From NCBI RefSeq assembly GCF_025643275.1, contig NZ_CP089977.1:2074667-2106666 (forward strand): a DNA stretch of 32,000 nucleotides, read 5' to 3'. The stretch comes from Moraxella nasicaprae. GTDB lineage: Bacteria; Pseudomonadota; Gammaproteobacteria; Pseudomonadales; Moraxellaceae. The translations under genes and the position numbers were made by a program. How positions within the stretch are numbered: the stretch's first letter is position 1; each line of letters begins with the position of its first letter. The notes under the pieces are model-generated. The model made no database searches. It saw only the letters and a list, made by a program, of their open reading frames with translations, and was not told where the DNA came from. Of this stretch, positions 2,775-25,468 are shown piece by piece.

Positions 2775-2787
2775 GATTGTTTAAAAA

Positions 2788-3006: not shown

Positions 3007-3008
3007 CA

Positions 3009-4594: not shown

Positions 4595-4660
4595 CACACC
4601 TTTAACATACGGATTTTTCTTAAAACCCTTTAAAAGACCCAAACTCCAAAACCCCCTACA

Positions 4661-4691
4661 ATACACCCAATCACTTTGGGTGTATTTTTTT
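4661..4691 (+). terminator. Rho-independent terminator between gpV and gpW
   Basis: Stem atacaccca (4661-4669) pairs with tgggtgtat (4677-4685) around a 7-nt loop, followed by T6 (4686-4691). Flanking ctacaa/ttgtag can extend the stem. Confidence 0.6.
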
Positions 4692-4701
4692 GTAGGTCAA
4701 A

Positions 4702-5052
4702 ATGACAACCACCAACCACCGCCATTGGCAATTATCATCTGACAGCACGGCAATCACGGATATTGATGACATTCATCGCTGTATCGAGATTATTTTGGCC
4801 ACCAAAAAAGGCTCTGATGTCTTGCGACCGACCTTTGGCTCGGCTCATTTGGATTATTTGGACGCACCAACTGATATTTTAATTCCTAATGTGGTGCGTG
4901 AGATTCATCTGGCACTGCAAACTTGGGAAAAGCGAGCCATCATCAAAGACATTTATTTTACAGGGCAAGCACCACATTTGACGATGATGATTGATTGGCA
5001 AGTGGCGGATAGTGTCAAAGGCGAGATTTATAAAAGCGAATTTATCTTGTAG
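4702..5052 (+). CDS. Baseplate wedge protein, GPW/gp25 family (P2 gpW, Mu gp46-like)
   Basis: 116 aa. IEIILATKKGSDVLRPTFGS...ALQTWEKR matches the GPW_gp25 signature. Confidence 0.85.
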   Translation: MTTTNHRHWQLSSDSTAITDIDDIHRCIEIILATKKGSDVLRPTFGSAHLDYLDAPTDILIPNVVREIHLALQTWEKRAIIKDIYFTGQAPHLTMMIDWQVADSVKGEIYKSEFIL

Positions 5053-5060
5053 GGGCGAGC

Positions 5061-6200
5061 GTGAAACTACCAAAACGAGAAAACTTAAAAATCGTGGACG
5101 ATGACATCGGCACGATTTTAAGTGAGACAATCAAAGACTACGAACACCGAGCAGGCAAAGTGCTACAACCTGCTCATATTGAACGCCTTCTCATCAATGC
5201 CTTTGCTTATCGTGAGTTATTGCTACGAAAACAGCTTAACGAAGCCTACCGCCAGCAACATATCCCCTATGCCACAGGCTTAATGCTTGATGTCGCTGGG
5301 GCGGATTTTGGCACACATCGCCTGTCCGCACAGCCTGCGGATACTGTTTTGGAATTTAGCGTTAATCCTTCTGAAATTGGCAATTTAACCATTCAAATCG
5401 CCAAGGGCACACAAGTCTTGGCGGGCAATGTTACCTTTGCTACCACAGAGGGTGGACAGCTTAATCAAAACAGTCCAAGTATCCGCCTAAATGCCGTTTG
5501 CACTCAAACAGGTGCAGTTGGCAATGGCTATGCGGTGGGGCAAATTGGCACGCTGGCAACTCGCCCACACCCCACCATTAGCGTATCAGCCAAAAACATC
5601 ACCATCAGCCAAAATGGGACTGATGTAGAGAGCGATGACAGCTACCGAGAGCGGATTATGCTTGCTTTTGAGCGTTTTAGTAATGCAGGCTCAAAAGGAG
5701 CGTATGCTTATTTTGTCCGCTCGGTCAGCCAAGAGATTATTGATGTCTATGTAGGTAATGCCATAGACCGTCAAGGACAGCCGATTGGCGGGACGGTGGC
5801 GGTGTACTTGCTTGGCAAGACTATGCCAGTTTCGGACAATCTGATTCGTGAAGTAAATAAGGCGTTGAATGACGAAAAGGTACGCCCCCTATGTGATACC
5901 GTTACCGTAAATTCTGCAAAAGTGGTTAATTTTACCCTAAATGCCGAGCTGACCGTCTTTACAGGGGTAAATGCTGATGAAGTCTTGGCAAATGCCAAAA
6001 GTGCATTTGATGTTTATCAAAAAGAGGCACAAAGCCGACTTGGGCAAGATGTCGTTCCCCTAAACATCGCCAAAACCTTGCAAGTGGCGGGCGTTTATGA
6101 TGTTAAGCTCATTAGCCCTACCTTGACCGCCATTGCCCCTGATACGGTTGCCATTTGCAATCACATCAATATCCGTATTGTGGGGCAAACCGATGGATAA
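5061..6200 (+). CDS. Baseplate protein J (P2 gpJ, Mu gp47-like)
   Basis: 379 aa with a GTG start. Size, position after gpW and the ...ESDDSYRERI...S.AGSKGAYAYF... pattern are typical of Baseplate_J. Confidence 0.8.
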   Translation: MKLPKRENLKIVDDDIGTILSETIKDYEHRAGKVLQPAHIERLLINAFAYRELLLRKQLNEAYRQQHIPYATGLMLDVAGADFGTHRLSAQPADTVLEFSVNPSEIGNLTIQIAKGTQVLAGNVTFATTEGGQLNQNSPSIRLNAVCTQTGAVGNGYAVGQIGTLATRPHPTISVSAKNITISQNGTDVESDDSYRERIMLAFERFSNAGSKGAYAYFVRSVSQEIIDVYVGNAIDRQGQPIGGTVAVYLLGKTMPVSDNLIREVNKALNDEKVRPLCDTVTVNSAKVVNFTLNAELTVFTGVNADEVLANAKSAFDVYQKEAQSRLGQDVVPLNIAKTLQVAGVYDVKLISPTLTAIAPDTVAICNHINIRIVGQTDG

Positions 6201-6774
6201 GCTCATTTATGCCGATGTGATTGCCAAAGAGCAAACCTTTACAGCTTTGGCGGATTTGGGGCTTGCCCTTGATGAGTTGCCAATAGATAAGCTCCTTATT
6301 CGCTTGATTGATTTGGTAGACAGTGAGCATTTACCAATTTTGGCAGAGAGTATGAGTGTCGCTGGAGTGGACGGCTATTGGCTTGCCGAAAGCGATGAAG
6401 CAAGGCGAAATCTTATTAAAGGAGCGTATGACCTGCACCGCTTCAAAGGTACACCGTGGGCGGTTAAGGAAATCGTCAGACGGCTTGGCTTTGGTAATGC
6501 CACGCTTGAAGAGGGCTTTGGTGGCAAACGACATAATGGCGAAATCACAAGGCGAGATGGCGTCTATAACTATGGGCATTCTGACCGCTGGGCGTATTAT
6601 CGCATCATCATTCACGAACCTATTACCCTTGAACAGGCGAACCTACTTAGAAAGACTTTGTCCGCGTTTGCCCCTGCTCGCTGTATTTTGTCCGCCCTTG
6701 ATTTTACACAGGCAAGCATTCGGCACAATGGCAAAATTATCCGAGACGGCAGATACACTCGTGGCACGGCTTAA
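6193..6774 (+). CDS. Tail protein I (P2 gpI, Mu gp48-like)
   Basis: Start taken at MDKLIYADV (ATG 6193), with an ATGGATAA overlap with the gpJ stop. LPILAESMSV.G...W......RRNLIKGAYDLHRFKGT matches the Tail_P2_I pattern. Confidence 0.75.
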   Translation: MDKLIYADVIAKEQTFTALADLGLALDELPIDKLLIRLIDLVDSEHLPILAESMSVAGVDGYWLAESDEARRNLIKGAYDLHRFKGTPWAVKEIVRRLGFGNATLEEGFGGKRHNGEITRRDGVYNYGHSDRWAYYRIIIHEPITLEQANLLRKTLSAFAPARCILSALDFTQASIRHNGKIIRDGRYTRGTA

Positions 6775-7023
6775 ACGACTTTAATTTGTAAGGAAAAGAT
6801 TATGGCAAACTTGCAAGAAACACCCACTTGGGAAGCTGGTATTTATCAGCTTGAAACTTCTGACCCTGTGATGGGCGGAGAAAATGGTATTGATAATAGA
6901 GCTCCAAGACAACTCGCCAACCGCACACTGTGGCTAAAAAATGAGCTAGCAAGGCAGATTGGGGTGGTCAATAGTGGCAAACTTGGCAAAACTGAAAATG
7001 CGGTATCAGCAAGCAAACTTGCC

Positions 7024-7373
7024 ACCGCTCGCAATATTGCAATGACAGGGACGGCTCGTGGAATGTCAATTTTGACGGCTCACAAAATGCCACAGGTGCC
7101 TTAACGCTTGCAAACAGCGGTGTTACGGCAGGCTCTTATAACTCGGTTACAGTAGATGCCAAAGGACGAGTAACAGCAGGCTTAACCCAAACGCACGGAC
7201 TGGTAACCGCCACTACCGCACAAGGGACAGCCAATGTCGCCACAGGTAACGGCAACACCTTTCTTAACATTGTTGCAAGTGGCGTGGGTCAAACTGCGTC
7301 TGTTGGTTCATCCACCCAAATCACAGGTACAAATGGTATTACCGTCTCATCAGACACGGCTGGCAAGCTCATT
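7024..7373 (+). repeat. Tail-fibre internal direct repeat, copy 1 (about 350 bp)
   Basis: Aligns with 7908-8258 (offset 884, then 885 after the 1-nt gap) at high but imperfect identity. It encodes ARNIAMTG(D)GSWNVNFDGSQNATGALTLANSGVTAGSYNSVTVDAKGRVTAGLTQTHGLVTATTA...GVGQTASVGSSTQITGTNGI.VSSDTAGKLI. Confidence 0.8.
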
Positions 7374-7907
7374 TTAGGGCAAACACTTGCCAATAGTTTG
7401 ACTGATGCTTCTACCGCCAAGGCTTTGACCGCCTTACAAGGTAAGGTGCTTGATGAGAAGATTACGGCTGTCAATAACGCTTTGACAAGCCACCGCCATA
7501 ATTGGAATGAGATTGATAGCAAGCCCAGCACTTTTACGCCATCAAGCCATACACATACCATCGCTAATATTACCGATTATGATGTTAGGCAAATCAGTAC
7601 TGAAGATTTGGATAGCATTACCAAATGGGGTATTTATGGACAAGGGGCAAACAATCAATCACTGACTGAGAGAAATTATCCTGTACCTAATGAAGCTGGC
7701 ACATTGGAAGTTATGCCTGGCACTTACGGACTTCGCCAAAGATTTACTACATTTGCCACTCATCGTCAGTTTGAGCGCTCAAGAAACAATGCTCAAACAG
7801 GCTGGAATGCGTGGACGGAGCTATCAAACACATGGGACGCCATACGAGGCAAGCCAAATAACCTTGCTACCACCACAAGCAATGTCGCCTCTGCCACCAA
7901 GCTCCAA

Positions 7908-8258
7908 ACCGCCCGCAATATCGCAATGACTGGCGATGGCTCGTGGAATGTCAATTTTGACGGCTCACAAAATGCCACAGGTGCCTTAACGCTTGCAAAC
8001 AGTGGTGTTACGGCAGGCTCCTATAACTCAGTAACGGTGGACGCAAAAGGACGAGTTACCGCAGGCTTAACCCAAACGCACGGACTTGTAACCGCCACCA
8101 CCGCCACAGGGACAACCAACACCGCCACCACGAACACTAATACATTTCTAAACATTGTGGCAAGCGGCGTAGGTCAAACTGCGTCTGTTGGCTCAAGTAC
8201 GCAAATCACAGGCACAAACGGCATCAGCGTATCATCAGACACTGCTGGTAAGCTCATT
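7908..8258 (+). repeat. Tail-fibre internal direct repeat, copy 2
   Basis: See copy 1. This copy is in frame. Confidence 0.8.
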
Positions 8259-8680
8259 GTTACCCGTGATAGCAACTCGCCCACCGCCACCAAACTTGCC
8301 ACCGCCCGTAACATCGCCCTAACAGGAGCGGTAACTGGCAATGTCAATTTTGATGGGTCGGGGAATGTGAGTTTGGCAACAACTGTGCAATCCGTGAGTG
8401 GCAAAGTGGTTGTTATGACTGGTACTATCGAACATGGTGGCACCATTCCACTACCAGCAGGATTTAATGAAAATCAATGCAAGTGGATGGTTTCAATGAA
8501 TGATGACAATCCAACTCGAACAACATGGGATATTAACGAAGGAGGGTATCATTTACATTATCGCCAAGAATGCTTTACGGAAGGTCGTGTGGTAACAGCT
8601 AGGACTTATCTAGGTGGACATTCTGGCTCATCATCTGTTGTGAACAGTAAGGCTAACTACATCATCATTGGAGTGAAATA

Positions 8681-9259
8681 ATGTATTACATTTTTAATAA
8701 AGATGGTAAAAATATCGGTCAGTGCGACTTTGAGCCAAACGCAGAAGACTTAGCAAGTCGCCAAGAAAGCTATCAACTGTACAAAAATCCTTTACAACAA
8801 GGGGATGAAATTTGGCTTGTTGATGGAAAAATCACAATCATCAGCCCGGCTCAATTAACGACAGAAGAGCTTAAAGTCCAACACCAATCCCAAATCTGGG
8901 AAGCCATCAAACAAAAACGTCACACCATCACTCGTGGCGGGGTTTATGTCAAATCGGTCAAAAAGTGGTTTCATACCGATGATAGTTCTCGCACACAGTA
9001 TTTGGCATTGCAAATCTTGCCACAGCTACCGCCTGATTTAATGTGGAAAACGATGGATAACAGCTTTGTCAAATTGGATAAGGCGTTATTGACCGAGCTT
9101 GCGATGACGATTTTGACCGCCGAGCAAGCTGATTTTGCTAATGCTGAAAAGCACCGTTTGGCAATGTTACAGGCACAAAATCCCCTAGAATACGATTATT
9201 CAAAGGGTTGGACAGCCATTTATGACCCAACTGACAAACAAGGAGCAAGCGATGAATAA
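8681..9259 (+). CDS. Probable tail fibre assembly/chaperone protein
   Basis: 192 aa. The start overlaps the fibre stop (taATG), which is the gpG/Mu-U chaperone position. Assigned mainly by synteny. Confidence 0.5.
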   Translation: MYYIFNKDGKNIGQCDFEPNAEDLASRQESYQLYKNPLQQGDEIWLVDGKITIISPAQLTTEELKVQHQSQIWEAIKQKRHTITRGGVYVKSVKKWFHTDDSSRTQYLALQILPQLPPDLMWKTMDNSFVKLDKALLTELAMTILTAEQADFANAEKHRLAMLQAQNPLEYDYSKGWTAIYDPTDKQGASDE

Positions 9260-9707
9260 AGTCTATTTAGCTTGCTATCGTGGGCGTGGCGACAAATTGA
9301 CCCACCGCCTATGTGATGGCATTACCCGCTTTTTTACTCGTGGCAAATACAGCCACACCGAGATTGCCATCGCCTTGCCTGACGGTCGTTACCAATGCTA
9401 TTCATCAAGCGTGCGTGAAGGTGGTGTGCGTACCAAGATAATGCCCTTAAATCCTGACAAATGGGACTTAATCGCCCTTGGTGGCATTTCGCCCGAACAA
9501 ATTACCCGCTATTACCGACAAAATCACGGCTCGGATTATGACCTTTTGGGGGCGTTGGGCTGTGTGGCGGGACTACCACAGAACGCAGATAAATTCTTTT
9601 GTTCTGAGTGGTGCTACAACGCCATTTTTGGGTCAAATCAAGGCTTTCGGTTTAGCCCCAATCAGCTTGCCGAGATTGTTCGCCATTTATCCATTTTGGA
9701 TAACTAA
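9252..9707 (+). CDS. Hypothetical protein, possibly a permuted papain-like (YiiX/C92-type) cysteine hydrolase
   Basis: Start chosen at MNKVYLACYRG, preceded by AAGGAG. His (KYSHTEIAI) precedes Cys (KFFCSEWCY), the order seen in permuted NlpC/P60-like enzymes. This is a weak motif-level call. Confidence 0.35.
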   Translation: MNKVYLACYRGRGDKLTHRLCDGITRFFTRGKYSHTEIAIALPDGRYQCYSSSVREGGVRTKIMPLNPDKWDLIALGGISPEQITRYYRQNHGSDYDLLGALGCVAGLPQNADKFFCSEWCYNAIFGSNQGFRFSPNQLAEIVRHLSILDN

Positions 9708-9732
9708 TTTTGTTCTTATTTAGGAGAAATCA

Positions 9733-10254
9733 ATGCCAAATCCAAGTAACTACCCAACCCAAATCACGCCACATTTTAGCTATCGTGAGCTGACAAGAAG
9801 CGAAACTGCCAGACGGCATGGAGTTGCAAACATCCCAAGCCAAAGCGATCTTGCCAACATCACTTATACCGCTCATCAGCTTGAAAAGGTGCGTGCTTAT
9901 TTAAATGACAAATACCAAAAGCCCATCGCCATCATCGTAACTTCTTGCTTTCGTAGCGAAAGGGTTAATAAACTGGTTGGTGGTTCAAAAACTTCCGCTC
10001 ATCGCTTTGGACTGGCGGCGGATTGTGATGCTACAGGCTTTACATCAAGGGCATTTGCCAAAGAAATCATTGAGATGCGTGATAAGGGCTTGATTGCCTT
10101 TGATCAGCTGATTTTGGAATTTCCAGAAAGAGGTGATGGAGCATGGGTGCATTTGGGCTTTAAAAAAGACGGCAAAGGTCAAAGAAATCAAATCTTAACC
10201 GCCACCAAACGAAACGGCAAAACTGTGTATTTGCAAGGCTTGCAAGGAGGTTAA
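9733..10254 (+). CDS. Peptidase M15 family (D-Ala-D-Ala carboxypeptidase-like) peptidoglycan hydrolase, probable endolysin
   Basis: HFSYRELTRSETARRHGVANIP, the Zn ligand motif SAHRFGLAAD (Hx6D) and AWVHLGF. RBS taggag lies upstream. Confidence 0.8.
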   Translation: MPNPSNYPTQITPHFSYRELTRSETARRHGVANIPSQSDLANITYTAHQLEKVRAYLNDKYQKPIAIIVTSCFRSERVNKLVGGSKTSAHRFGLAADCDATGFTSRAFAKEIIEMRDKGLIAFDQLILEFPERGDGAWVHLGFKKDGKGQRNQILTATKRNGKTVYLQGLQGG

Positions 10255-10362
10255 GATGATTTAGATTAAACGATAAAAAAAGAAAAGACGGTCGGTATGA
10301 CGGTGTGCGACCACCGCCATACCAGCCACGCAGTGTGAGTGCGTAAGCCCAAAGAACCGCCT

Positions 10363-10374
10363 GCTTAGCTAAGC
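10363..10374. promoter_or_regulatory. Perfect 12-bp palindrome GCTTAGCTAAGC upstream of the com-like gene (candidate operator or terminator element)
   Basis: Seen directly. It lies 41 nt before ATG 10415 and is followed by a T-rich run (tgttatttta). An imperfect 16-bp stem (10290-10305 pairing with 10312-10327) lies just upstream. Confidence 0.3.
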
Positions 10375-10414
10375 GGTGTTATTTTACCACAAAATCCATA
10401 GGATTACGCAAAAA

Positions 10415-10609
10415 ATGAAACAGCGTTGCACAAATTGCAAAAAACTTTTAGCCATTGGCACGGGCAATTTTGCCATCAAATGCCCAAGATGCAAAACTTT
10501 AAATCAAATTAACACGCAAACCAAAGAATGCCACGAGCATCATAACCCTTTAAATAAGGAAACCTATGAATGCTCAAAACAACCCCCAACCAACCCAATC
10601 CACCCCTAA
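10415..10609 (+). CDS. com: Mu Com-like zinc-finger translational regulator
   Basis: MKQRCTNCKKLLAIGTGNFAIKCPRCKTLNQI has the same CxxC...KLL...I.CPRCK arrangement as phage Mu Com (MKSIRCKNCNKLLFKA...IEIRCPRCKRHII, recalled from memory). It sits at the prophage right end and its 3' end overlaps the next gene by 44 nt, as com does with mom. Confidence 0.75.
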   Translation: MKQRCTNCKKLLAIGTGNFAIKCPRCKTLNQINTQTKECHEHHNPLNKETYECSKQPPTNPIHP

Positions 10610-11443
10610 CCCCAAACAATACCCAAAATCAAAACCCAGTGTCGGCAGTCTCTTTGCTGGCATTGGCGGATTTGACTTGGGATTTGAAAACGCAGGTTTT
10701 TACACCAGCTGGCAAGTGGAAATTGACCCCATTTGCAAAGCGGTGTTATCAGACCGTTTCCCCCACGCCACCCAGTTTGACGATGTTAGAAACTGCTTGC
10801 CCAAAATCCAAGCCCTGCCAAATGGCGGAAGTGTCGATGTCATGTCTCCATGGCAGGCAAACGAGCAGGACTTCACGGACAGCGGACAGGCTTGTTCTTT
10901 GATGCTATCGGTATTATCCAAGCAATTAAGCCAAGATTTGTCGTGCTTGAAAATGTCACAGGTCTCATCAATTCCAACGATGGCAAAGACCTACAAACAG
11001 TCATTGAAACGCTTGCCCAATGCGGGTATGTGGGATTTTGGCGAGTGCTGGACAGCCGTTATTTCGGAGTCCCCCAAAAACGCCGTAGAGTATTCTTGGT
11101 TGCAGGTCTTGGAGAATACCCACCATTTAGCCTTATGGCTGACTTGGGGTCAGTGGAACGCATTTCTGGCAAGACTGAATCGCAATCGTGCTGGGCGGAC
11201 GCACACCATACGCTACTGGCAGGGGTCGGCTCATCCGCCATCAACATCAATTGTGCTGATATCATCGCTGTGCCAAATGGACGGCATCAGATGGCTGTCA
11301 GGGAGCGAACGACTGTCGATGATGGGCTTTGCAAAGGATTGGATGAGACCAACGCTTGTGAGGCTAGGACTGCGGGAAACGCCGTCTGTCCGCAAGTCGC
11401 ACAGTTTATCGCAAGCCACTTGATGACGTCTTTTAACCCATAA
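10566..11443 (+). pseudogene. DNA (cytosine-5) methyltransferase, disrupted by several frameshifts
   Basis: Motif I SLFAGIGGFDLGFENAGF is in frame 1. A PCQ triplet occurs only in frame 2 (10813-10821). AGKRAGLHGQRTGLF, ENVTGL and QKRRRVFLVAG are in frame 3. Motif IX ERLSMMGFAKDW is back in frame 1, and motif X GNAVCPQVAQFI is in frame 3. Confidence 0.65.
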
Positions 11444-11506
11444 TTGAACCAGCATTTCAACCATTTTGAGTGTCTTGAACGCCTTTAACTTTAAAAGGAT
11501 AAGTTT

Positions 11507-12373
11507 ATGACACTCAATTCACTTTCTAACAAACATTACAAAACCGCCCCTTTGCCATTTACAGGGCAAAAGCGAATGTTTTTAAGGCACTTTGAAAAAA
11601 TCTTAAAAGATAATGTCTCAAATGATGGAGAGGGCTTTACGGTGCTTGATGTCTTTGGCGGTTCTGGACTGCTTGCTCACAATGTCAAGCGTATCTTGCC
11701 CAAAGCCAACGTCATTTATAACGACTTTGACGGCTATGCTGAGCGTTTGGCTCATATTCCCACCACCAATCGCTTACGCCAAGAGCTGTTTGAAATCTTA
11801 AAAGACGAGCCAAGAAGTGCCAAATTATCAAACACCACCAAAGCCAAAGCCCTAGACCATATCCGTAAAAGTGCCGACAACGGGACTTTTGTTGATGTGC
11901 AAACCTTGGCAGGTTGGTTGTTGTTTAGCGGACGACAAGTGGGCAATCTTGATGAGTTTTTGGCAGAGTCCACCTTTTATAACCGTATTGTCAAAACTGA
12001 CTACGACACCGCAGATGGCTATCTGGAAGGTCTTATCATTGAATGCCTAGATTTTGAAAAGCTGTTACAAAAATACCAAGACACCCCAAATTGCTTGCTT
12101 CTGCTTGACCCGCCTTATGTTTGCACCGCACAGGGGGCGTATGCCAAGCACGGCTATTTTGGCATGACGAAGTTTTTACGGCTTATGCAGTTTGTGCGTC
12201 CACCCTTTATCTTTTTTAGCTCCACCAAAAGCGAGTTGATGGATTATATGGCTTATGTGGAGCAGTACGAGCCACCCACTTGGCAAAGGGTTGGGGGCTT
12301 TGAGCGGATTGTTGTCAATGCTCGCATTAACGCACAAATTGGCTATGAAGACAATATTTTGGTTAAGTTTTAA
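11507..12373 (+). CDS. N6-adenine DNA methyltransferase, Dam-like (D12 class); no adjacent restriction gene
   Basis: The AdoMet motif VLDVFGGSGLLAH precedes the catalytic LLLLDPPYV (alpha-group order). The ORF is an intact 288 aa with RBS aaaagga. Confidence 0.7.
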   Translation: MTLNSLSNKHYKTAPLPFTGQKRMFLRHFEKILKDNVSNDGEGFTVLDVFGGSGLLAHNVKRILPKANVIYNDFDGYAERLAHIPTTNRLRQELFEILKDEPRSAKLSNTTKAKALDHIRKSADNGTFVDVQTLAGWLLFSGRQVGNLDEFLAESTFYNRIVKTDYDTADGYLEGLIIECLDFEKLLQKYQDTPNCLLLLDPPYVCTAQGAYAKHGYFGMTKFLRLMQFVRPPFIFFSSTKSELMDYMAYVEQYEPPTWQRVGGFERIVVNARINAQIGYEDNILVKF

Positions 12374-12463
12374 AAAGTGAAAATTCATTACAAAAAGACT
12401 GGACTACGCTCTATGAGTACGGCAGTATGTGCCTTATAAATTAACAAGTTAAAGGTAAATGTA

Positions 12464-12910
12464 ATGTTAGACATTCAAACGGTTTCAAGTTTTGTCCAAG
12501 AGTATGGTGTGGTAGATTTTGACTGCGAGATGGACGATGGCGTACTTTGGTTTCGGGGTGTCAATTGTTATTTGATTATTGGCAAAGTTACTGACAAGCA
12601 GGTGTTTTTGACGGTTTGGGAAGATGATGAGTGCAATGAAGTCATTGAAAACTTTGAAATCCAGAACCTTGATGAATTGAATGTTTGCTTAAAGAAATAC
12701 GCCTTGATTGCTCAGGTAAGCACCAAGCAAGATGAAACCATCCAAAAACCAACCGACACCACGATGATTGATATCTACTTTAAGCTCATTAAAGACAAAT
12801 TGGCAGAACATCAAATCAACCTTGATTTTGAAAAACAAAGCCAAGCCGAAAAGCTGGTCATTCGCCACATTGAGGATAAACTGGTGGAGGTTATCAAATT
12901 TTTGCAATAA
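12464..12910 (+). CDS. Hypothetical acidic protein (last prophage gene)
   Basis: 148-aa ORF followed by a strong terminator. I recognise no motif. Confidence 0.5.
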   Translation: MLDIQTVSSFVQEYGVVDFDCEMDDGVLWFRGVNCYLIIGKVTDKQVFLTVWEDDECNEVIENFEIQNLDELNVCLKKYALIAQVSTKQDETIQKPTDTTMIDIYFKLIKDKLAEHQINLDFEKQSQAEKLVIRHIEDKLVEVIKFLQ

Positions 12911-12929
12911 CCAAGTAAGATAAAAAAGT

Positions 12930-12960
12930 AAATGCCCCAAGTAAGATTGGGGCATTTTTT
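12930..12960. terminator. Bidirectional rho-independent terminator
   Basis: Stem aaatgcccca (12930-12939) pairs with tggggcattt (12948-12957) around an 8-nt loop. T6 follows on the + strand and an A-run precedes it (T-run on the - strand). It lies between convergent ORFs. Confidence 0.75.
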
Positions 12961-12983
12961 ATGGGGTAATTGTAAAAATGAAA

Positions 12984-15900
12984 TTATCTTGCACATAGTG
13001 CAACAAAACCAAAAAGATATTTATTGCATAAATAGGCGAGATTTTTCGCGGCGGGCATCATCATCTCCAATCTTCCTGTATTTATTAGGGCTGCCAATCT
13101 ATTTGCTTCTTCCTGATTGGCTTTTGGTGCATTTGCTCTAATTTTATTATAATAAGCCCCATTCCATCTCACCACCTCCTCAGCCATCTGCACTGCCATA
13201 TTCACATCTTCTTCTGCTAGGGCTGCTACTGTCCCTGCGATGAGTTTGGCTTGGTTGATGATACTTTGTCTTTGAGAGTCTGTTAGGGTAGTGGGGTCAT
13301 CTATTTGCCAATCTGCCCAGATTTCTGCCATACTAGCACCTAAGGCACCTGCTTGGCAAGTTGATCCTTGTGCTTTGGCAGATAGACAGCCTGTGAGTCC
13401 TGCGGCAAGTTTGTGGGCGATGTTGTTAATGTTGCCATCTGTATCAATGGGTTTAACCAAATGAGCAAAGGCTTGTTGATGTGATAGGGCAATCAGTTGA
13501 TTACCAAGATTGGTTTTTAGGTTGTCTTCTAAGTCTGTGCCATAGATGGCAGATTGTAGTAGGCTTTTTGAAGTACTTTGGGCAATGCCTTTGATGAATC
13601 TGTCATTAAGACTTAACTGGGTTTGGTCAATGCCTTGTATGTTTAGTCCTTTATCAATCTTATTGCTGATACCAGCACTGGCGATGGCAAAGGCAAGCTG
13701 TTTGGCATTGTCTTTATTGCCAAGCTGCTTGATGGCGGCTTTGATGTTGCCTTGATTATTGATTAGGCTGATGGTGGCTTGTTCGGCAAGGGTGCTAAGA
13801 GCGGTATTTGCCATCGCTGTCAGGGTATGACTGCCCAATAAAGTACCGTTAATCGGTGCAATACCGCCTGTTGCCATTCCCATGGCAATGGTTAAGATGG
13901 CAGCCCCTGCTGGAGTAAGACCTGCTTGCTGGTAGTTCCATTCTTTTTGAGTGAGAATAAGGGTCTGCCAGTCGATGTTGTTTTGCTGGATGAGCGAATT
14001 TAGATAGCTGTATTCGGGCTGTTTGGCAAGTTCAAGGATTTGTTCCTTGATGACTTTTCTTTGGACATCTTTTTCGCTGATAGGGATTTGTACCACAAGA
14101 CCGCCATCGGCAACAAAACTAGGCGGTGTACTACCTGTAAAGCTGGGTAAAACAGCTGTTTGAGTATATTGTCCTTTATCTTGCATTCGTTGCCAAAAGA
14201 CTTCATTGGCTTGTGAGGTGGTGCTTATATTGAGAGTGCTAATCGCTGGAAGTAGATGAACTTTGCCGCCTGCTTCAATATTTGCACCAGACAGATAGCT
14301 AAATATACTGCCTTGTAGGGTGGTGTCGCCAAGAGATTTGGTATTGATATAACGAGCGGTCAAAGAGGCGGGCAGGGCAGTAATTTGCAATTTGTGATGA
14401 TTGGTTGTTGCATTGCCTGCTTTAACGCCCAAGATGCGTCTTTTGACCTGAGTATCTTGATGATGCTCATGCACATCATTGACGCTAAATAGATTGATTG
14501 CACCTGTAGCAAAGACACTGATATTGCCTGTCGTACTCATTTTGGTGGCATAAAAGTCAGCATTACTTTGATGACCTTGAGCGGTTAATGAGATATGATG
14601 GGCAGCCAAAGAAGTCGGTAGGGCGGTGGAATACTCATCTTGGGTTTGAACATTGATGGTTTTGCGATTGAGTGCACTGCCTTTTTTGCTGCTACTTTCA
14701 TCGTAGCGATGGGTATAATTGATGGCATGGTCAACGAGTAAATGATGATTAGCAGCGATGGTTAGGTTAGACTTAGCATCAATGTTGCCAGCTTGTACAA
14801 CCAAATGGACTGGCTGCCCTGCTTGATTGGTCTTGGTGGCAGATAGGCTGACATTACTGGCTGTGATTTGACTTGGCACAAACAAAGCATGGTTGCGATA
14901 ATAAGAGGAGTTTTCCTTGCCCATTTCATAGATGTTGTGTGAGCCATCGACTAGGATGCTGGCGGTGATGTTTTGGTCGTTTTTGTGGTATTTGTCAGTT
15001 AATGTACCCTGTGCTTGCAAAGTGATGTTATTGGCAGCGGTCAAGTTCGATGAACGGATTAGAATGCCTTGAGCAGCATTCATGCTGATATTGTTTTGTG
15101 CTGTCAGGGTGGAGGGCTGATATTCTGTACCGATTGGATTTCTTTTCAAGTCAGCCAGTTGGTCAGTCAATCTTGATACATCAGCTTGCAAAGCCTCCTC
15201 TTTTGATTTGGCAGGCAAATGCTTAGATAATACCGATTCTAATTCGTTGATTTTGGCGTTGGTTTGGTTAATTAGTCGGTCATAGTCAGCCACAGTCTTT
15301 GGATCTGCCGGCGAAGTGGGTGATGCTGAACGAAATCTAATCCCTGATGGTGGGGGAGGCGGTGGGGGAGGTAAGAGAGTGTCGCCAAGCGATCTGCTGT
15401 TTTCTGGTAGAGATGGCGTGGCAGGATTGCTTAATGCCTGTCTTTGACTATGATGCAAAGCTAGCTGAAATTGCAGAGAATTAATCTGAGTCTGCAATTG
15501 TCGATAAGACTGATATGCGTCAGATTTTTGAAAGATTGCTAATGCTTGCTTGGCTTGTTTGAGCTGTTTTTCTATATTGTCAATCGTATGTATGGGCAAT
15601 GCTTGACCATCTAGGCGATTGCTTAGAGCATCAACCAGAACGGAGCCCTTCCCAGCATTTAGATGGATATTTTTACCTGTAATATTTGCCCCTTGTAAAA
15701 CAATCTCTTGTGCGGATATGGTCAAATTTCCTTTTGGAGTAAGTTGTGCTAATTGACCTGAGCCAATACCCTTAGTGCCTTCATGACCGATTAAATCAAT
15801 GTTGCCATTTTGGGACTGTAGCCATAAATCTCCATCAGCAGATAATTGATGTGTCTGAGGTCGAATGTGCAATGCTTGCTCGCTAATAATAGATAAGTCG

Positions 15901-17531
15901 CCACTTAGTGTCGTAGTTTGCGGATTTTTGGTTAACAGCTGTGTTTTGGTTGCATTAGCAAATAATTGACCCTGCGGCTTGATGGACAGCTTTTTGGTTT
16001 TTAATAAAATTGCACCAGCCGTCAGATTGGTCGATCCTGTAATCGTATGCAAACCAAGTGAAACGCTACTTAAGATACCCTTAGCACTTAAATTACCACC
16101 TATATTTTGATCGCCTGTGGTATAAAGCGTTAAATGATGATCGGCATTGGCAGTCGTGTTTTGCCAAACTAGGTCTTTTCTAGACTCAATAGAGATGTTT
16201 TTGTGTGCAGTTAAATTACTGTTAGTCAGCGTTTGATTTTGGTGTGTGTAGAGATTGATTGATCCATCTGCATTTAACTGGTTGTCAGTCATTTGTGCAC
16301 TGCCAGCTAATGATGCTACAGTGATGTTGCCTGTTGTACGAATACTACTTTTACCGATAGATAGAGCGTCTTTGGTAACTAACTGGACATTGCTGGCAGT
16401 CATATTGGACTGCTGTACGCTGAGCGTCTTGGCTTTGGTTTCAATGTTGCTGGCAGTTAAATTTGTTTGATGTAGATTAAGGGTGTTGTTTGTTGTTAAA
16501 AGGATGTCTCTCCCTCCTGTCACATTGCCTGCCAAAGTTTGATTGTTAGCATTTAGGTGGATATTGCCTTGTTTGGTGCTCATCACCCCTTGTGCCGACT
16601 GGTAAATATCTGTTTGGCTACTTAGTAGGATTTGATGATCTGCATGTATATTGCCTGTGTTTTTGATGTATCCATCACTACTGACATAGACTTGCTGAGC
16701 GGCGTTTAAGCTACCAGCATTATTGACACCAACGCCCTGATCGGTAACAATCAAACGAATATTGCCAGCATACATACCGCCAAGCTGACCTGTATCAATA
16801 GCAATGGTGGCAGCGGAAGATTTATTTGATGATGCTTGAACAGGAGTGGAAAGTCCATTGGTAATAATATTAGAGCCTGCAACAACATTAATACTATCAT
16901 TGGCATGGATTTTGCCATTTAATTCCACTGCTTTAGCATATAGATTAAGATAATTGGCTTGATGCCTATCGGACATACCTGTTTGACCGATATTAATTTT
17001 ACCAGCATTGATTTGATGGCTAATGTTGCCCTGCAAATGACTAACCGTGCCAGTTGTTAATGTTGCCTCATTTGTGTTAATAAACCCAGCACCAGAAACT
17101 ACAATTCCTGACGGGTTGGCAATGATAACATTGGCTGTTTGTCCAGCAACCTCAATAATACCAGCAATATTGGTGGCTTTACTACTGTTAATTTCATTGA
17201 TGATGGTATGGGCAGAACCTTGTTGTAAAAAAGGATTACCCTCAATCTGATTGGCAAGCTGTGTCTGTGTACTACCACGAGCATTGTTTAGCACGACACC
17301 TATGTCATTAACATTGAACCTTTCGTATTGATTATGAGATATGCCATTAACAGGTGTGCGAATCTGTACCACAGGAACAGCTTGTCCATTAGTATGAGTT
17401 CCTGCAAGAATAATGGGTTTTTTATTAGAATCTGCTTTTGGATCGCTGATAACTTGGGCAATGCTTGATGTTGAAATTGATAAAAGAATGGCAGAAATGG
17501 CAATATTCAAAGATGATTTTGAAAATAGCAT
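12984..17531 (-). CDS. cdiA: CdiA/filamentous-haemagglutinin-type TPS exoprotein, toxin-less truncated copy (1457 shared codons plus a 58-aa tail)
   Basis: Identical to the 1779-aa copy through VVRWN. It then reads GAYYNKIRAN...GRLEMMMPAAKNLAYLCNKYLFGFVALCAR*. The last 25 or so codons lie in the putative prophage end. Confidence 0.85.
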   Translation of the reverse strand: MLFSKSSLNIAISAILLSISTSSIAQVISDPKADSNKKPIILAGTHTNGQAVPVVQIRTPVNGISHNQYERFNVNDIGVVLNNARGSTQTQLANQIEGNPFLQQGSAHTIINEINSSKATNIAGIIEVAGQTANVIIANPSGIVVSGAGFINTNEATLTTGTVSHLQGNISHQINAGKINIGQTGMSDRHQANYLNLYAKAVELNGKIHANDSINVVAGSNIITNGLSTPVQASSNKSSAATIAIDTGQLGGMYAGNIRLIVTDQGVGVNNAGSLNAAQQVYVSSDGYIKNTGNIHADHQILLSSQTDIYQSAQGVMSTKQGNIHLNANNQTLAGNVTGGRDILLTTNNTLNLHQTNLTASNIETKAKTLSVQQSNMTASNVQLVTKDALSIGKSSIRTTGNITVASLAGSAQMTDNQLNADGSINLYTHQNQTLTNSNLTAHKNISIESRKDLVWQNTTANADHHLTLYTTGDQNIGGNLSAKGILSSVSLGLHTITGSTNLTAGAILLKTKKLSIKPQGQLFANATKTQLLTKNPQTTTLSGDLSIISEQALHIRPQTHQLSADGDLWLQSQNGNIDLIGHEGTKGIGSGQLAQLTPKGNLTISAQEIVLQGANITGKNIHLNAGKGSVLVDALSNRLDGQALPIHTIDNIEKQLKQAKQALAIFQKSDAYQSYRQLQTQINSLQFQLALHHSQRQALSNPATPSLPENSRSLGDTLLPPPPPPPPSGIRFRSASPTSPADPKTVADYDRLINQTNAKINELESVLSKHLPAKSKEEALQADVSRLTDQLADLKRNPIGTEYQPSTLTAQNNISMNAAQGILIRSSNLTAANNITLQAQGTLTDKYHKNDQNITASILVDGSHNIYEMGKENSSYYRNHALFVPSQITASNVSLSATKTNQAGQPVHLVVQAGNIDAKSNLTIAANHHLLVDHAINYTHRYDESSSKKGSALNRKTINVQTQDEYSTALPTSLAAHHISLTAQGHQSNADFYATKMSTTGNISVFATGAINLFSVNDVHEHHQDTQVKRRILGVKAGNATTNHHKLQITALPASLTARYINTKSLGDTTLQGSIFSYLSGANIEAGGKVHLLPAISTLNISTTSQANEVFWQRMQDKGQYTQTAVLPSFTGSTPPSFVADGGLVVQIPISEKDVQRKVIKEQILELAKQPEYSYLNSLIQQNNIDWQTLILTQKEWNYQQAGLTPAGAAILTIAMGMATGGIAPINGTLLGSHTLTAMANTALSTLAEQATISLINNQGNIKAAIKQLGNKDNAKQLAFAIASAGISNKIDKGLNIQGIDQTQLSLNDRFIKGIAQSTSKSLLQSAIYGTDLEDNLKTNLGNQLIALSHQQAFAHLVKPIDTDGNINNIAHKLAAGLTGCLSAKAQGSTCQAGALGASMAEIWADWQIDDPTTLTDSQRQSIINQAKLIAGTVAALAEEDVNMAVQMAEEVVRWNGAYYNKIRANAPKANQEEANRLAALINTGRLEMMMPAAKNLAYLCNKYLFGFVALCAR

Positions 17532-17673: not shown

Positions 17674-18142
17674 TAATCTTTTATGTAACGAACTTCAAAA
17701 TTATAATAATATTAAAAATCAATTATTAACTAATTTCTTTGATTTTTGAGTTCATAAACAAGCATTTTGTTCGTCTTATTATGCCACATCTTATAGATAT
17801 TATAAGTCTTTTGCTTGCAGAAATGCCAAGACAAGACTGCGAAAAAATTAAAAAAATGAGAGTTTGGTTCCCACAAGAACGGGAGAGGAGCGGTGTTCTT
17901 ATGTGTCATGTAAAGCAGACTATCTGTGCAATACAGCCTAAAACAAGGCATGGAGCATCCGCTAAAACTGATGGCACGCACCACCTTTATCCCATGGATG
18001 GATGACATCTGGGATCGGGGTATGTACGAAAGACAGAGTGCTGATTATTACTGGCAAGGTTATAAAGATTTGTGCTTTAGAGTGCAGGCGTATGTCAATG
18101 AGAATCCCAAGCTAAGAGACATGTATCCCTAAACCGCTTTAT

Positions 18143-18178
18143 CAAGAATAAAAAACCACCATCGAAAAGATGGTGGTT
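18143..18178 (-). terminator. Rho-independent terminator ending the cdiA-immunity operon
   Basis: Stem aaccaccatc (18154-18163) pairs with gatggtggtt (18169-18178) around the loop gaaaa. On the - strand it is followed by ttttttatt. It lies 50 nt after the stop at 18228. Confidence 0.75.
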
Positions 18179-18227
18179 GGTGGGGTTGGTTATGCAGTGT
18201 ACTAGCACAATGCTGAGTCTGATATAA

Positions 18228-19094: not shown

Positions 19095-19129
19095 AGTTTT
19101 CTCCATAAAAACATATCTAATTCTATAAT

Positions 19130-19990
19130 CTAAAAATCCACCATATATGGAGTAAAATCAAAGTCGCCATCTTGACCCGAAAAAATATGGGCTGCGTAAC
19201 TATCAATGGCTTCTTGTGGATTATTCAATCTTTTTATGCTAAATACATCAGCATTTTGGATAATATAGATATTTTCTCCCTGATCAATAGATGAGCAAAA
19301 TAATTGGAAACCAGTGTTGCTATAGTCGTCCATAGTTCGTGTATCTAATAGATTTCTTAACTCAAAATAATCATTTCTATTATCCCCTGTATACTGATCG
19401 TCATCATAATCTCTCACGATGCGATGATTAAACTTAGCATCTAAAAAATCACAATATTTATCTCTATTTTGTCTAGTTTCAAAATTATCTATAATAGAGT
19501 GAATTGGACTTTGTAAAGTTGTTGGCAGACGGCTTTTAAAAGGACTAGTAACTGTGTCTTCTGCAATATGCCACGCATCTGTGTGGAGTATCCAAGAGCG
19601 AAGAACAAAAACTGGTAAATTTTTGTAAAAAATACTATCAGGATCTTGTTCGTAGCAAGGAATTGATGGATATGATAAATAAAAACATTGATGATTAACA
19701 ATTATACCAAATTGAGTAATATCTCCCATAATTTCTGGATAAGGTGATTTTTCTACAGCATAGAAGAACTCTGCTTTTAAAAGCAGCTGATAGGTTTTGG
19801 GTTGAAGGCTTTCAAAGGGTTGGACTAAATATTCCTTTAAATCGCCTTTTGAAATAAAATGGTAGCCATCATATTTTCTTTCATTGCATTTTAAACTTAG
19901 TTCCATAAATGGAATATCATCAAAATCATTTTGATAAAAGACTTTATCACAACTTTCCTCTAACTGAGTTTTAGTCAAAAATAGTTTCAT
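19130..19990 (-). CDS. Putative CdiI-type immunity protein for the HNH toxin (family unrecognised)
   Basis: 286 aa. The start overlaps the cdiA stop as ATGA (19987-19990), with GGAG inside the last cdiA codons, indicating translational coupling. This is the canonical immunity position. Confidence 0.65.
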   Translation of the reverse strand: MKLFLTKTQLEESCDKVFYQNDFDDIPFMELSLKCNERKYDGYHFISKGDLKEYLVQPFESLQPKTYQLLLKAEFFYAVEKSPYPEIMGDITQFGIIVNHQCFYLSYPSIPCYEQDPDSIFYKNLPVFVLRSWILHTDAWHIAEDTVTSPFKSRLPTTLQSPIHSIIDNFETRQNRDKYCDFLDAKFNHRIVRDYDDDQYTGDNRNDYFELRNLLDTRTMDDYSNTGFQLFCSSIDQGENIYIIQNADVFSIKRLNNPQEAIDSYAAHIFSGQDGDFDFTPYMVDF

Positions 19991-22900
19991 GATTTTTTTC
20001 TCCGCTTAAATAATTCTTGATGAACTTTTTCGGTTGCATCTTTGAGTATCTGCTGCTGTTGCCTTAACAAATATGCTCTATATTTAGGAGATATTTCTTT
20101 ATTCCCCTTAACATATTTAACCCATCCATCAGTACCTGTTTCAATCTTAGAACCCTTAGAAGAGTTAAGATGTTTAGGTAGTGGCTGTAAATTAGAAGGA
20201 TTATTTATGAGCTTTTCTTGTACATCTTTTGGCAAATCATTAAAGCCTGGAATTTTTTTAAATTCCGCTCTGGGGAGAATATGATCAAAAGATGCTACAG
20301 CGTCATCGGGAAAGAATTTTTTGGTATTTGTAAAAGGATCCAAATACATTACCTTGCCAGTTTTAGCATCTACCCAATCACCTTTGATTAAAATCTCGGC
20401 AGCATTACCATATTTGTTGCCAAAATCACAACAATTCGCATTATGCACCCACACACCCAATCTGCCCACATGATAGGTGTGAAAGTCATCCACTTCGATA
20501 TTATAGACAGTGTCGGTGTGGTTGGGTAGTAGGTATTGGCTTATAACTTCTACTTCTTGATTGTTTCTATCAAGTAGTATCATGCCTTGTTCTAGTAAAG
20601 ACGCTTTTAGCCAGCCTGTATCTTTAATCCAAAATGGGTGTTCAGCTGTGGTTTCTAAGGTTTCAATTTGACCTTGATGGTTTTTGACCGTTACTTGGAA
20701 AATGGGTTGGTCAGGTGTTGCTTTGGTGGCAATGACAGGACGATAGCCGTATTCTAGGGTAATGTCATTTCTTGTCCAAATCAGTTCACCACCTGTGAAG
20801 GTTTCGATGGTTTTCAAGCCTTCTGATGTTTCAATCAGGGTTCCTGCGGTAAAGCAAACGGTGCCTTTCTTGCACAGTTTAGAGATGCTATTGATAATAG
20901 CGGCACTAGCACCAGCACCAAAACCACCACCCAATCTATTTAAACTGGTGGTTGCATTCCACCTAACCACCTCCTCAGCCATCTGCACTGCCATATTCAC
21001 ATCTTCTTCTGCTAGGGCTGCTACTGTCCCTGCGATGAGTTTGGCTTGGTTGATGATACTTTGTCTTTGAGAGTCTGTTAGGGTAGTGGGGTCATCTATT
21101 TGCCAATCTGCCCAGATTTCTGCCATACTAGCACCTAAGGCACCTGCTTGGCAAGTTGATCCTTGTGCTTTGGCAGATAGACAGCCTGTGAGTCCTGCGG
21201 CAAGTTTGTGGGCGATGTTGTTAATGTTGCCATCTGTATCAATGGGTTTAACCAAATGAGCAAAGGCTTGTTGATGTGATAGGGCAATCAGTTGATTACC
21301 AAGATTGGTTTTTAGGTTGTCTTCTAAGTCTGTGCCATAGATGGCAGATTGTAGTAGGCTTTTTGAAGTACTTTGGGCAATGCCTTTGATGAATCTGTCA
21401 TTAAGACTTAACTGGGTTTGGTCAATGCCTTGTATGTTTAGTCCTTTATCAATCTTATTGCTGATACCAGCACTGGCGATGGCAAAGGCAAGCTGTTTGG
21501 CATTGTCTTTATTGCCAAGCTGCTTGATGGCGGCTTTGATGTTGCCTTGATTATTGATTAGGCTGATGGTGGCTTGTTCGGCAAGGGTGCTAAGAGCGGT
21601 ATTTGCCATCGCTGTCAGGGTATGACTGCCCAATAAAGTACCGTTAATCGGTGCAATACCGCCTGTTGCCATTCCCATGGCAATGGTTAAGATGGCAGCC
21701 CCTGCTGGAGTAAGACCTGCTTGCTGGTAGTTCCATTCTTTTTGAGTGAGAATAAGGGTCTGCCAGTCGATGTTGTTTTGCTGGATGAGCGAATTTAGAT
21801 AGCTGTATTCGGGCTGTTTGGCAAGTTCAAGGATTTGTTCCTTGATGACTTTTCTTTGGACATCTTTTTCGCTGATAGGGATTTGTACCACAAGACCGCC
21901 ATCGGCAACAAAACTAGGCGGTGTACTACCTGTAAAGCTGGGTAAAACAGCTGTTTGAGTATATTGTCCTTTATCTTGCATTCGTTGCCAAAAGACTTCA
22001 TTGGCTTGTGAGGTGGTGCTTATATTGAGAGTGCTAATCGCTGGAAGTAGATGAACTTTGCCGCCTGCTTCAATATTTGCACCAGACAGATAGCTAAATA
22101 TACTGCCTTGTAGGGTGGTGTCGCCAAGAGATTTGGTATTGATATAACGAGCGGTCAAAGAGGCGGGCAGGGCAGTAATTTGCAATTTGTGATGATTGGT
22201 TGTTGCATTGCCTGCTTTAACGCCCAAGATGCGTCTTTTGACCTGAGTATCTTGATGATGCTCATGCACATCATTGACGCTAAATAGATTGATTGCACCT
22301 GTAGCAAAGACACTGATATTGCCTGTCGTACTCATTTTGGTGGCATAAAAGTCAGCATTACTTTGATGACCTTGAGCGGTTAATGAGATATGATGGGCAG
22401 CCAAAGAAGTCGGTAGGGCGGTGGAATACTCATCTTGGGTTTGAACATTGATGGTTTTGCGATTGAGTGCACTGCCTTTTTTGCTGCTACTTTCATCGTA
22501 GCGATGGGTATAATTGATGGCATGGTCAACGAGTAAATGATGATTAGCAGCGATGGTTAGGTTAGACTTAGCATCAATGTTGCCAGCTTGTACAACCAAA
22601 TGGACTGGCTGCCCTGCTTGATTGGTCTTGGTGGCAGATAGGCTGACATTACTGGCTGTGATTTGACTTGGCACAAACAAAGCATGGTTGCGATAATAAG
22701 AGGAGTTTTCCTTGCCCATTTCATAGATGTTGTGTGAGCCATCGACTAGGATGCTGGCGGTGATGTTTTGGTCGTTTTTGTGGTATTTGTCAGTTAATGT
22801 ACCCTGTGCTTGCAAAGTGATGTTATTGGCAGCGGTCAAGTTCGATGAACGGATTAGAATGCCTTGAGCAGCATTCATGCTGATATTGTTTTGTGCTGTC

Positions 22901-25326: not shown

Positions 25327-25468
25327 TTTAACTTCCTTGTAAAATTGTCAGCTCCTTCTTAGATTTAGTGAAAGTTTAGCAAATACCAAAAAATAGTTCA
25401 AGTCGGAATTGGTATGATTTTTGAGGAAATTTAATCACGGGTTGGTGTGTATGAATACCTTATTTAAC
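20966..25468 (-). repeat. 4503-bp perfect direct repeat, copy B
   Basis: See copy A (offset 7795). Confidence 0.9.
25373..25401 (-). promoter_or_regulatory. Candidate sigma70 promoter of full-length cdiA
   Basis: Identical to 17578-17606: TTGAAC, 17-nt spacer, TAAACT. Confidence 0.5.

Follow-up and report, generated by a model that had tools for sequence, protein, structure and literature searches.

Among transposable phages, the target duplication is 5 bp in Mu and 6 bp in B3-type phages, and the termini are usually TG...CA, with TA-TA termini in some Leptospira prophages (PMC8705779). Here we describe a prophage of this kind that ends inside a gene of a contact-dependent growth inhibition (CDI) island, in a 32,000-nt stretch of the chromosome of Moraxella nasicaprae, which is assembled as one single 2.1-Mb contig; the whole stretch is called the window below. 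The gene is cdiA copy 2, the second of two cdiA genes in the window, and the toxin domain at its C-terminus (CT) is called CT2. It is very probable that a ~38-kb transposable prophage was inserted into the CT2 region of a full-length cdiA by DDE-transposase-mediated transposition, splitting the toxin from its delivery protein.

The phage family to which the prophage belongs shares with Mu (Muvirus) its insertion at effectively random sites, conserved ends, a short target duplication, the order of tail and baseplate genes and the Portal_Mu and Mu F head genes. At the right end, as in Mu, a Com-like regulator precedes a DNA-modification gene and the terminus is ...CA-3′ with CGAAAAA, and in-gene insertion produces a truncated or fused open reading frame (ORF). 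Unlike Mu, the family has a 6-bp rather than a 5-bp duplication, a left end in TA rather than TG, no MuA-specific transposase domains by Pfam and no match to a MuA sequence in the PDB. Methyltransferases here replace mom, and the left end is the place of the head module (TerL to G), which has been inverted between relatives.

Other described phages share different subsets of these features. The Pseudomonas phage B3 (B3-Tn552 type) has, like relatives of the present prophage, a 6-bp duplication, a DDE transposase with an AAA+ activator and a genome of ~38 kb, and the Leptospira TA-TA prophages have the non-canonical TA that is found here at one end (PMC8705779). Both differ from the present family in that its ends are asymmetric (5′-TA...CA-3′), its host is Moraxella and its virion module is that of a P2/Mu-like myovirus. 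Judged by baseplate J (36–38% amino-acid identity), the Mu-like Pasteurella phage AFS-2018a and Burkholderia phage BcepMu belong to the closest sequenced phages. Both share the tail gene order, and the left end of AFS-2018a carries a repressor, transposase A/B, gam and mor; both are distant, have no DNA similarity and differ in their ends.

The interrupted gene resembles the CdiA-CT/CdiI loci with orphan CTs described from Escherichia coli EC93 and EC869, Neisseria and Moraxella (TpsA). As in those loci, a two-partner secretion (TPS) domain, DUF637 and a PT-VENN pretoxin domain lead to a VENN-like motif, here VVRWN, with a variable CT right after the motif, a presumed immunity gene directly downstream and, in the related locus L153 described below, orphan CT/immunity pairs. 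The locus departs from them in having two full-length cdiA genes with an identical 4.5-kb N-terminal region, in the splitting of one CT by a prophage and in the lack of an adjacent cdiB, both in the window and in L153.

A prophage terminus inside cdiA

The right end of the prophage is exactly 13060, with the sequence ...TTTTTCGCGGCGGGCATCA; read outward, positions 13060 to 13041 are TGATGCCCGCCGCGAAAAAT. Scanning one genome per species for TTTTTCGCGGCGGGCATCA gave 33 matches. We read 25 of these, in unrelated taxa, as chance; the other 8 belong to Moraxella or Faucicola, with single loci in M. bovis, M. caprae, M. lacunata, M. equi and F. mancuniensis and three in separate contigs of Moraxella sp. 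S24M_Sa_18. At all eight loci, which contain the 19-mer ending at 13060, 85–140 nt are similar to the window up to ...GGGCATCA, where the similarity stops, and the flanks are all different. Two IMG/VR prophages with an end that varies by one or two bases likewise lose homology at ...CATCA and have differing flanks. The exact 21-mer end is not present in IMG/VR, and the phage collection holds no close relative at the DNA level. Including the window, 11 termini have 11 different flanks, which is to say that conserved element ends are joined to unrelated host DNA. Because homology stops there at all loci and the flanks are unrelated, 13060 is the last base of the mobile element, which gives the terminus predicted at about 13060 its exact base.

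The right terminal region (Table 1) presumably holds transposase-binding sites, and a TGCAATAAAT block ~33–43 nt from the tip is common to the right and left ends. A set of 'type B' ends (L013, L021 and L025) was considered as left ends and rejected, as these are right ends with an extra gene.

The original prediction had arrived at this position through an alignment to the right end of Mu. The Mu sequence used for it is correct (TGAAGCGGCGCACGAAAAAC), and the alignment itself stands, with 13 of 20 positions identical to the window 20-mer and CGAAAAA at positions 13–19 in both. Its value as evidence does not: the window has nine 20-mers that agree with the Mu end at 13/20 or better, some at 14–15, so the likeness alone is not above chance. 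The resemblance to Mu is a lucky lead and no evidence.

A chimeric reading frame and its intact allele

cdiA copy 2 is an ORF of 1,515 aa (12984–17531, minus strand; UXZ04869.1), of which residues 1–1457 end with VVRWN at 13161, inside the 4.5-kb repeat, and are followed by a 58-aa tail. The host–phage junction splits codon 1491, with the A at 13061 coming from the host and the TG at 13060–13059 from the phage, so that 33 tail codons and 1 nt are host DNA and 25 codons and the stop are phage DNA. The phage-derived end of the ORF (12984–13060) is conserved at other insertion sites and missing from the intact allele. The ORF is therefore the host–phage chimera that had been proposed, and its read-through of ~25 codons does end before a phage terminator, a hairpin at 12930–12957 that sits 27 nt past the stop codon.

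An intact allele, P0022, is the 1,624-aa CdiA of Moraxella sp. GCA_030530725.1 (locus L153), which falls in one 90% cluster with UXZ04869 and comes from a locus with no prophage, the kind of relative in which the original prediction had suggested looking for an unbroken gene. Its C-terminus is ...VRWN-GAYYNKIRANAPKANQEEANRLAALINTGRLEM-NKENLDYLYQLNT...KLKD. Residues 1–33 of the chimeric tail are 100% identical to it, in agreement with the earlier view that they are the remnant of a different toxin domain, and across the insertion site P0022 reads ...VRWNGAYYNKIRANAPKANQEEANRLAALINTGRLEMNKENLDYLY... (GRLEM-NKENLDYLY), with 134 residues following the junction. At the DNA level, L153 is 97.7% identical to window positions 13061–17677 and parts from the window precisely at 13061|13060, its empty site reading ...GGAAGATTGGAGATGA|ACAAAGAAAAC. 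In the L153 locus, yajC and a 60-aa ORF precede the intact cdiA; a 159-aa gene comes 4 nt after cdiA and is followed by a 137-aa gene. Beyond these lie an orphan DUF637/PT-VENN module, accompanied by a 169-aa gene, and the start of an orphan copy of CT1, the toxin domain of cdiA copy 1 in the window.

Protein searches give the same picture of a curtailed toxin. A word-index search with the 77-aa tail returned no matches, and a full HMMER scan with it recovered CdiA C-termini that agree with residues 1–33 and then go on as NKENLDYLY... for ~125 more residues. M. oculi and Neisseria weaveri have members of the CT2 family too, and the family is also found as an orphan CT that overlaps a 170-aa gene downstream of it. 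The CT2 toxin domain has no Pfam match; its AlphaFold model is poor (pLDDT 62.8, 7 sequences), and a Foldseek search with it against the PDB gave nothing at E < 0.7.

By the side of these results, the phage terminal repeat (13041–13059, minus strand) encodes ..AAKNLAYLC.., which is similar to the ..NKENLDYLY.. of the native sequence that it replaces. This likeness makes the HMMER alignment run past the junction; it is coincidental, because the phage sequence is conserved at unrelated insertion sites.

The other gene half and the target duplication

NCBI protein accessions follow gene order in M. nasicaprae (checked for UXZ04853, UXZ04855, UXZ04858, UXZ04867, UXZ04868, UXZ04869, UXZ04872, UXZ04873 and UXZ04874), which places the rest of the gene on the far side of the prophage. 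UXZ04815.1 ('hypothetical protein', 135 aa, M. nasicaprae) consists of a Met and 134 residues, 133 of them identical to the P0022 C-terminus, and UXZ04814.1 (128 aa) is identical at 119 of its 128 residues to residues 32–159 of the 159-aa presumed immunity protein of L153, with which it shares a 90% cluster. The two are 55 (UXZ04814) and 54 (UXZ04815) accession numbers from UXZ04869. The 53 proteins between the halves (UXZ04816–UXZ04868) are what is expected from the size of a ~38-kb transposable prophage. The rest of the toxin and a homologue of the presumed immunity gene thus lie beyond the other prophage end, where they had been predicted; the cdiB gene tentatively expected with them was not found, with no cdiB/TpsB-like gene in the window or in L153 and none after the toxin and immunity genes there, and may have its place in another part of the genome.

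UXZ04814.1 is annotated 31 residues shorter at its N-terminus than MDO4894184.1 (L153 14880–15359), without a hydrophobic segment, and this could reflect another choice of start or a real truncation.

The Met of ...GRLEM is present in both gene halves, UXZ04815 beginning M-NKEN, so that at least ATGA, four or more bases, has been duplicated. A TCATCT duplication is predicted at the left junction in M. nasicaprae (Table 1), and it would have supplied the start codon of the stand-alone 135-aa toxin ORF UXZ04815. If its left junction is like those of relatives (...GGTGGGGTTTA), that ORF would also lie just 3′ of a Shine–Dalgarno-like GGTGGGG at the phage left end. A search of metagenomes for TCATCTTAAACCCCACCACAA, the left junction as predicted, gave 0 matches.

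Transposition hallmarks in relatives

Relatives in IMG/VR are 83–91% identical in baseplate J. Walking along the contig of one of them, IMGVR_UViG_2843589229_000003, we reconstructed a full prophage of 38,572 bp that is inserted in a lambda-like tail gene K; when the element is excised with a single copy of GCCAAA, the reading frame of K is whole again. The genes of this prophage specify a 592-aa DDE/rve transposase (PHROG 310, E = 1e-101) and an AAA+ transposition protein (AAA_22, PHROG 296), together with TerL, Portal_Mu, Mu F, a G-like protein, DUF3164, a head protease, a major head protein and the tail module of the window. No integrase was found among the ORFs screened in it. Elsewhere, in five Moraxella genomes, the transposase lies 31–37 accessions from a D12 methylase in the same ≥90% cluster as that of the window (M. 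bovis, M. lacunata, M. catarrhalis and Moraxella sp. ZY200743).

The true left end came to light through the disrupted K gene, a search for a perfect inverted copy of the right end having found none. At six loci (L001, L007, L018, L066, L069 and L102) it is 5′-TAAACCCCACCACAATAAACC..., beginning TAAACCCC, and TAAACCCCACCAC is an imperfect inverted match (8/13) to the right 5′-TGATGCCCGCCGC. The ends of the family are asymmetric, with 5′-TA on the left and CA-3′ on the right (...CATCA-3′). Target duplications are 6 bp in all four complete elements (GCCAAA, CTTTCT, GGTTAT and GATAGA). Two details of the original prediction give way here: the left end is not the matching inverted TG end that it foresaw, and in place of a 5-bp duplication, tcatc, the relatives lead us to expect TCATCT.

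Three internally deleted elements contain little beyond a left and a right end, each with a perfect 6-bp flanking duplication: 501 bp in L007 (reverse strand, 6119–6619), 483 bp in L018 (567–1049) and 1,397 bp in L001 (4529–5925). Two of the three are in one genome, Moraxella sp. S24M_Sa_18, and the right part of the L007 element (252 nt) is 97.6% identical to the phage end in the window. We do not prefer to view the 483-bp and 501-bp elements as mobilized miniature inverted-repeat transposable elements, as their deletion junctions differ, which makes independent in situ deletions equally likely.

Weighing the insertion against other explanations

Together, these data make the proof of the insertion in substance near complete. 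In the proposed event, the prophage would have entered between the first and second bases of codon 1491. The upstream half keeps its promoter, signal peptide, TPS domain, stalk, VVRWN motif and 33 CT2 codons, and then reads 25 codons into the phage right terminal repeat and stops just before the last phage terminator, giving the 1,515-aa UXZ04869.1. The downstream half is made up of 134 CT2 codons behind the Met codon from the predicted target duplication; like the presumed immunity gene, it lies beyond the other end of the prophage. With the toxin half and the delivery half on opposite sides of the prophage, the toxin domain is uncoupled from the delivery protein, and delivery of CT2 has presumably been lost.

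Several points weigh against this account. The 6-bp duplication and the left terminal sequence (TAAACCCCACC-like) in M. nasicaprae are extrapolated from relatives and from the shared Met, and the left end begins with TA, not the canonical TG. The relative's transposase has neither of the MuA-specific Pfam domains (HTH_Tnp_Mu and Mu-transpos_C) and no PDB sequence match to MuA; of the MuA/MuB-like pair that had been suggested as a check, the DDE transposase and AAA+ ATPase were found in relatives, with no integrase among the ORFs screened, and the MuA-specific domains were not. Finally, no M. nasicaprae transposase is among the members listed from the best candidate cluster (87 members), so the prophage could be defective, although we presume that it carries a transposase of its own.

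That last point bears on the alternative that survives best, namely that the element is a decayed fragment, a right arm without transposition genes, and not a complete and potentially active prophage. The frameshifted C5 methylase, the split tail-fibre region, the internally deleted relatives of 483–1,397 bp and the missing transposase would fit such a fragment. The 53 annotated proteins between the gene halves fit a full genome of ~38 kb, and the tail genes in the window are intact except for the split fibre region; we regard a fragment as unlikely, while giving it some weight.

A more ambitious reading holds that the insertion made a new functional arrangement, with a toxin-less CdiA serving as an adhesin or decoy, UXZ04815 and the presumed immunity gene forming a toxin–antitoxin-like module that stabilizes the prophage, and the TA/CA ends and inverted head block of this Moraxella/Neisseria phage family marking an undescribed variant of transposable phage. 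We consider this combination improbable. That the toxin-less CdiA could be exported, and could then serve purely as an adhesin or as a decoy that binds receptors, is speculation.

It is very improbable that the junction, or the presence of two cdiA copies, is an artefact of assembly. A 100% identical repeat of 4.5 kb is a typical source of misassembly, and phage ends are repeated DNA too, but the junction coincides exactly with the transposon terminus, and 100 nt of unique CT2 sequence bridge it. Copy 2 also carries two private single-nucleotide differences, at 13167 and 13170. The other gene half and the presumed immunity gene lie one prophage length away on the same contig, and the connectivity needs two copies of the repeat.

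We give hardly any credence to a site-specific integrase that placed the prophage at an attachment site within cdiA. P2-like phages use integrases, and the tail genes here have P2-type Pfam matches; the early region of the prophage lies outside the window. Against this, the flanks of the 11 termini all differ and the 6-bp duplications are of unrelated sequence; the relatives have a DDE transposase with an AAA+ partner and no integrase among the screened ORFs; and Portal_Mu, Mu F and Com are present. That the 58-aa tail is instead a native short or degenerate CdiA C-terminus, with the prophage ending elsewhere (for example at the terminator near 12960) and no chimera, can be dismissed for practical purposes: the ORF has no interruption and its annotation is that of an ordinary protein, and the HMMER alignment extends to tail residue 44 through a fortuitous NLxYL match, but the last 77 nt of the ORF are phage terminal DNA that recurs, differently flanked, at 10 other insertion sites, 13060 is exactly where the intact allele diverges, and the family alignment shows ~125 residues to be missing from the tail.

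Significance

The insertion is an ordinary disruption of a gene by a transposable phage of a poorly described family, and none of the results overturns current understanding. It is a clean natural case in which a transposable phage has separated a polymorphic toxin from the protein that delivers it, and in which the two gene halves and the ancestral allele are all known. As far as the sequence allows us to say, the strain should stay immune to CT2, because the presumed immunity gene is retained, and yet be unable to deploy it. A second full-length CdiA with a different toxin is still fielded, which bears on the turnover of CDI repertoires in Moraxella. The ends and the 6-bp duplication are now defined for a widespread, undescribed family of Moraxella transposable phages; this aids prophage annotation and could seed genetic tools.

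The two cdiA copies and the history of the island

The two cdiA copies share the 4.5-kb direct repeat, diverge at VVRWN and both contain the TPS (Pfam E = 1e-40), DUF637 and PT-VENN domains. The repeat is 100% identical over 13171–17673, and its two mismatches are the copy 2 differences at 13167 and 13170. With X standing for the repeat, the layout in M. nasicaprae is X-CT1-I-I′-554 bp-X-CT2. L153, by comparison, has a single cdiA-CT2 beside yajC and CT1 only as a distal orphan.

The interval between ruvA and yajC is a variable hot spot (25440–25463 compared with L034–L039). Strains that have yajC-secDF in common diverge from the window to the left of ~25440–25463. Four of them carry at this position an island with two tyrosine recombinases and a ~790-aa protein, the window and L153 carry the CDI island, and L034 is empty, with ruvA directly upstream. 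The upstream ends of the repeat (17673 and 25468) lie ~25–30 nt inside sequence common to the island-free L034 (17645–17673 and 25440–25468), and this position suggests that the whole CDI islet was duplicated at a short att-like repeat. A plausible history is that the island was duplicated at the ~25-nt repeat, that recombination between the pretoxin region and an orphan stub made CT1 full-length, and that the phage then entered CT2.

Gene content of the window and further observations

The features of the window are collected in Table 1. The DNA of the prophage right arm is 79–91% identical to the right ends of Moraxella prophages. Its genes, within 1–12910, run from tape measure through gpU-like, gpX-like, gpD-like, V, W, J, I, tail fibre and fibre assembly, the tail and baseplate module being in Mu order, to an M15 peptidase, a Com-like Zn-ribbon, a frameshifted C5 methylase, a D12 adenine methylase and a 148-aa last gene.

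Table 1. Positions and accessions of the features of the window (strand: +, − or. for neither)
Feature	Position	Strand	Accession	Basis
Prophage right arm, transposable Mu/B3-like	1..13060	+	UXZ04853-UXZ04868	Pfam, PHROGs
gpU-like			UXZ04853	
gpD-like			UXZ04855	
Baseplate J			UXZ04858	
D12 methylase			UXZ04867	
Last phage gene, 148 aa			UXZ04868	
Bidirectional intrinsic-terminator hairpin, 3′ of last phage gene	12930..12957	.		
Conserved right terminal region, ending ...GATTTTTCGCGGCGGGCATCA-3′	12976..13060	+		Nine-way comparison
Phage-derived ORF end: two thirds of codon 1491, 24 more codons (..MMPAAKNLAYLCNKYLFGFVALCAR), stop	12984..13060	−		Phage terminal DNA
Predicted 6-bp target-site duplication TCATCT (AGATGA on coding strand, with shared Met codon)	13061..13066	.		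Duplications in relatives; L153 empty site ...ggaagattggAGATGA|ACAAAG; UXZ04815 start
CT2 toxin-coding remnant: 33 codons (GAYYNKIRANAPKANQEEANRLAALINTGRLEM) + 1 nt	13061..13160	−		Identical to residues 1458-1490 of intact P0022; CT-family alignment
cdiA copy 2			UXZ04869	
cdiA copy 2 conserved part: signal peptide, TPS domain, stalk, DUF637, PT-VENN pretoxin ending VVRWN	13161..17531	−		Pfam
Direct repeat, 4.5 kb: 142 bp upstream + 1457 codons	13160..17673 = 20955..25468	.		
Spacer, 554 bp, between copy-1 unit and copy 2; 92-aa ORF without family match	17674..18227	.		
Two paralogous immunity-like genes, 292 aa and 286 aa (latter UXZ04872.1), downstream of copy 1	18228-19106 and 19130-19990	−	UXZ04872 (286 aa)	
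cdiA copy 1, 1779 aa: shared N-terminal 1457 aa, PT-HINT, HNH-like C-terminal toxin CT1	19987..25326	−	UXZ04873.1	Pfam
SecD			UXZ04874	
yajC-secD-secF	beyond cdiA copy 1	+		

The Com-like gene is recognized as Zn_ribbon_Com at 10376–10609 (Pfam E = 1.9e-7). Downstream of it, a frameshift divides the C5 cytosine methylase into two overlapping ORFs of 285 and 197 aa (10566–11443), and the tail-fibre region is also split (6802–7104 and 7284–8681); the two together suggest some decay of the prophage.

In the relatives, the left end is occupied by a head block of ~6.7 kb (small genes, TerL, Portal_Mu, Mu F and G) that precedes the repressor/transposase region, an unusual position in a Mu-like phage. 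The block is inverted in one prophage relative to five others (the E43 reconstruction L069/L061/L057/L043 versus L063–L066 and L068), the left terminal sequence remaining unmoved. The full-length relative used as reference (E43; L069 1–8350 and L043 18242–21000) is itself nested in another prophage, with a HicA/HicB pair nearby.

Another family member, in IMGVR_UViG_2681812931_000006 (L048, from 16283 onward), abuts a repeat-rich 620-aa ORF with no Pfam match. This flanking ORF was considered as a homologue of the cdiA of the window and rejected, as the two are not homologous. A PT-VENN ORF lies ~1.2 kb beyond it, and the locus may represent a second insertion into or beside a polymorphic-toxin locus.

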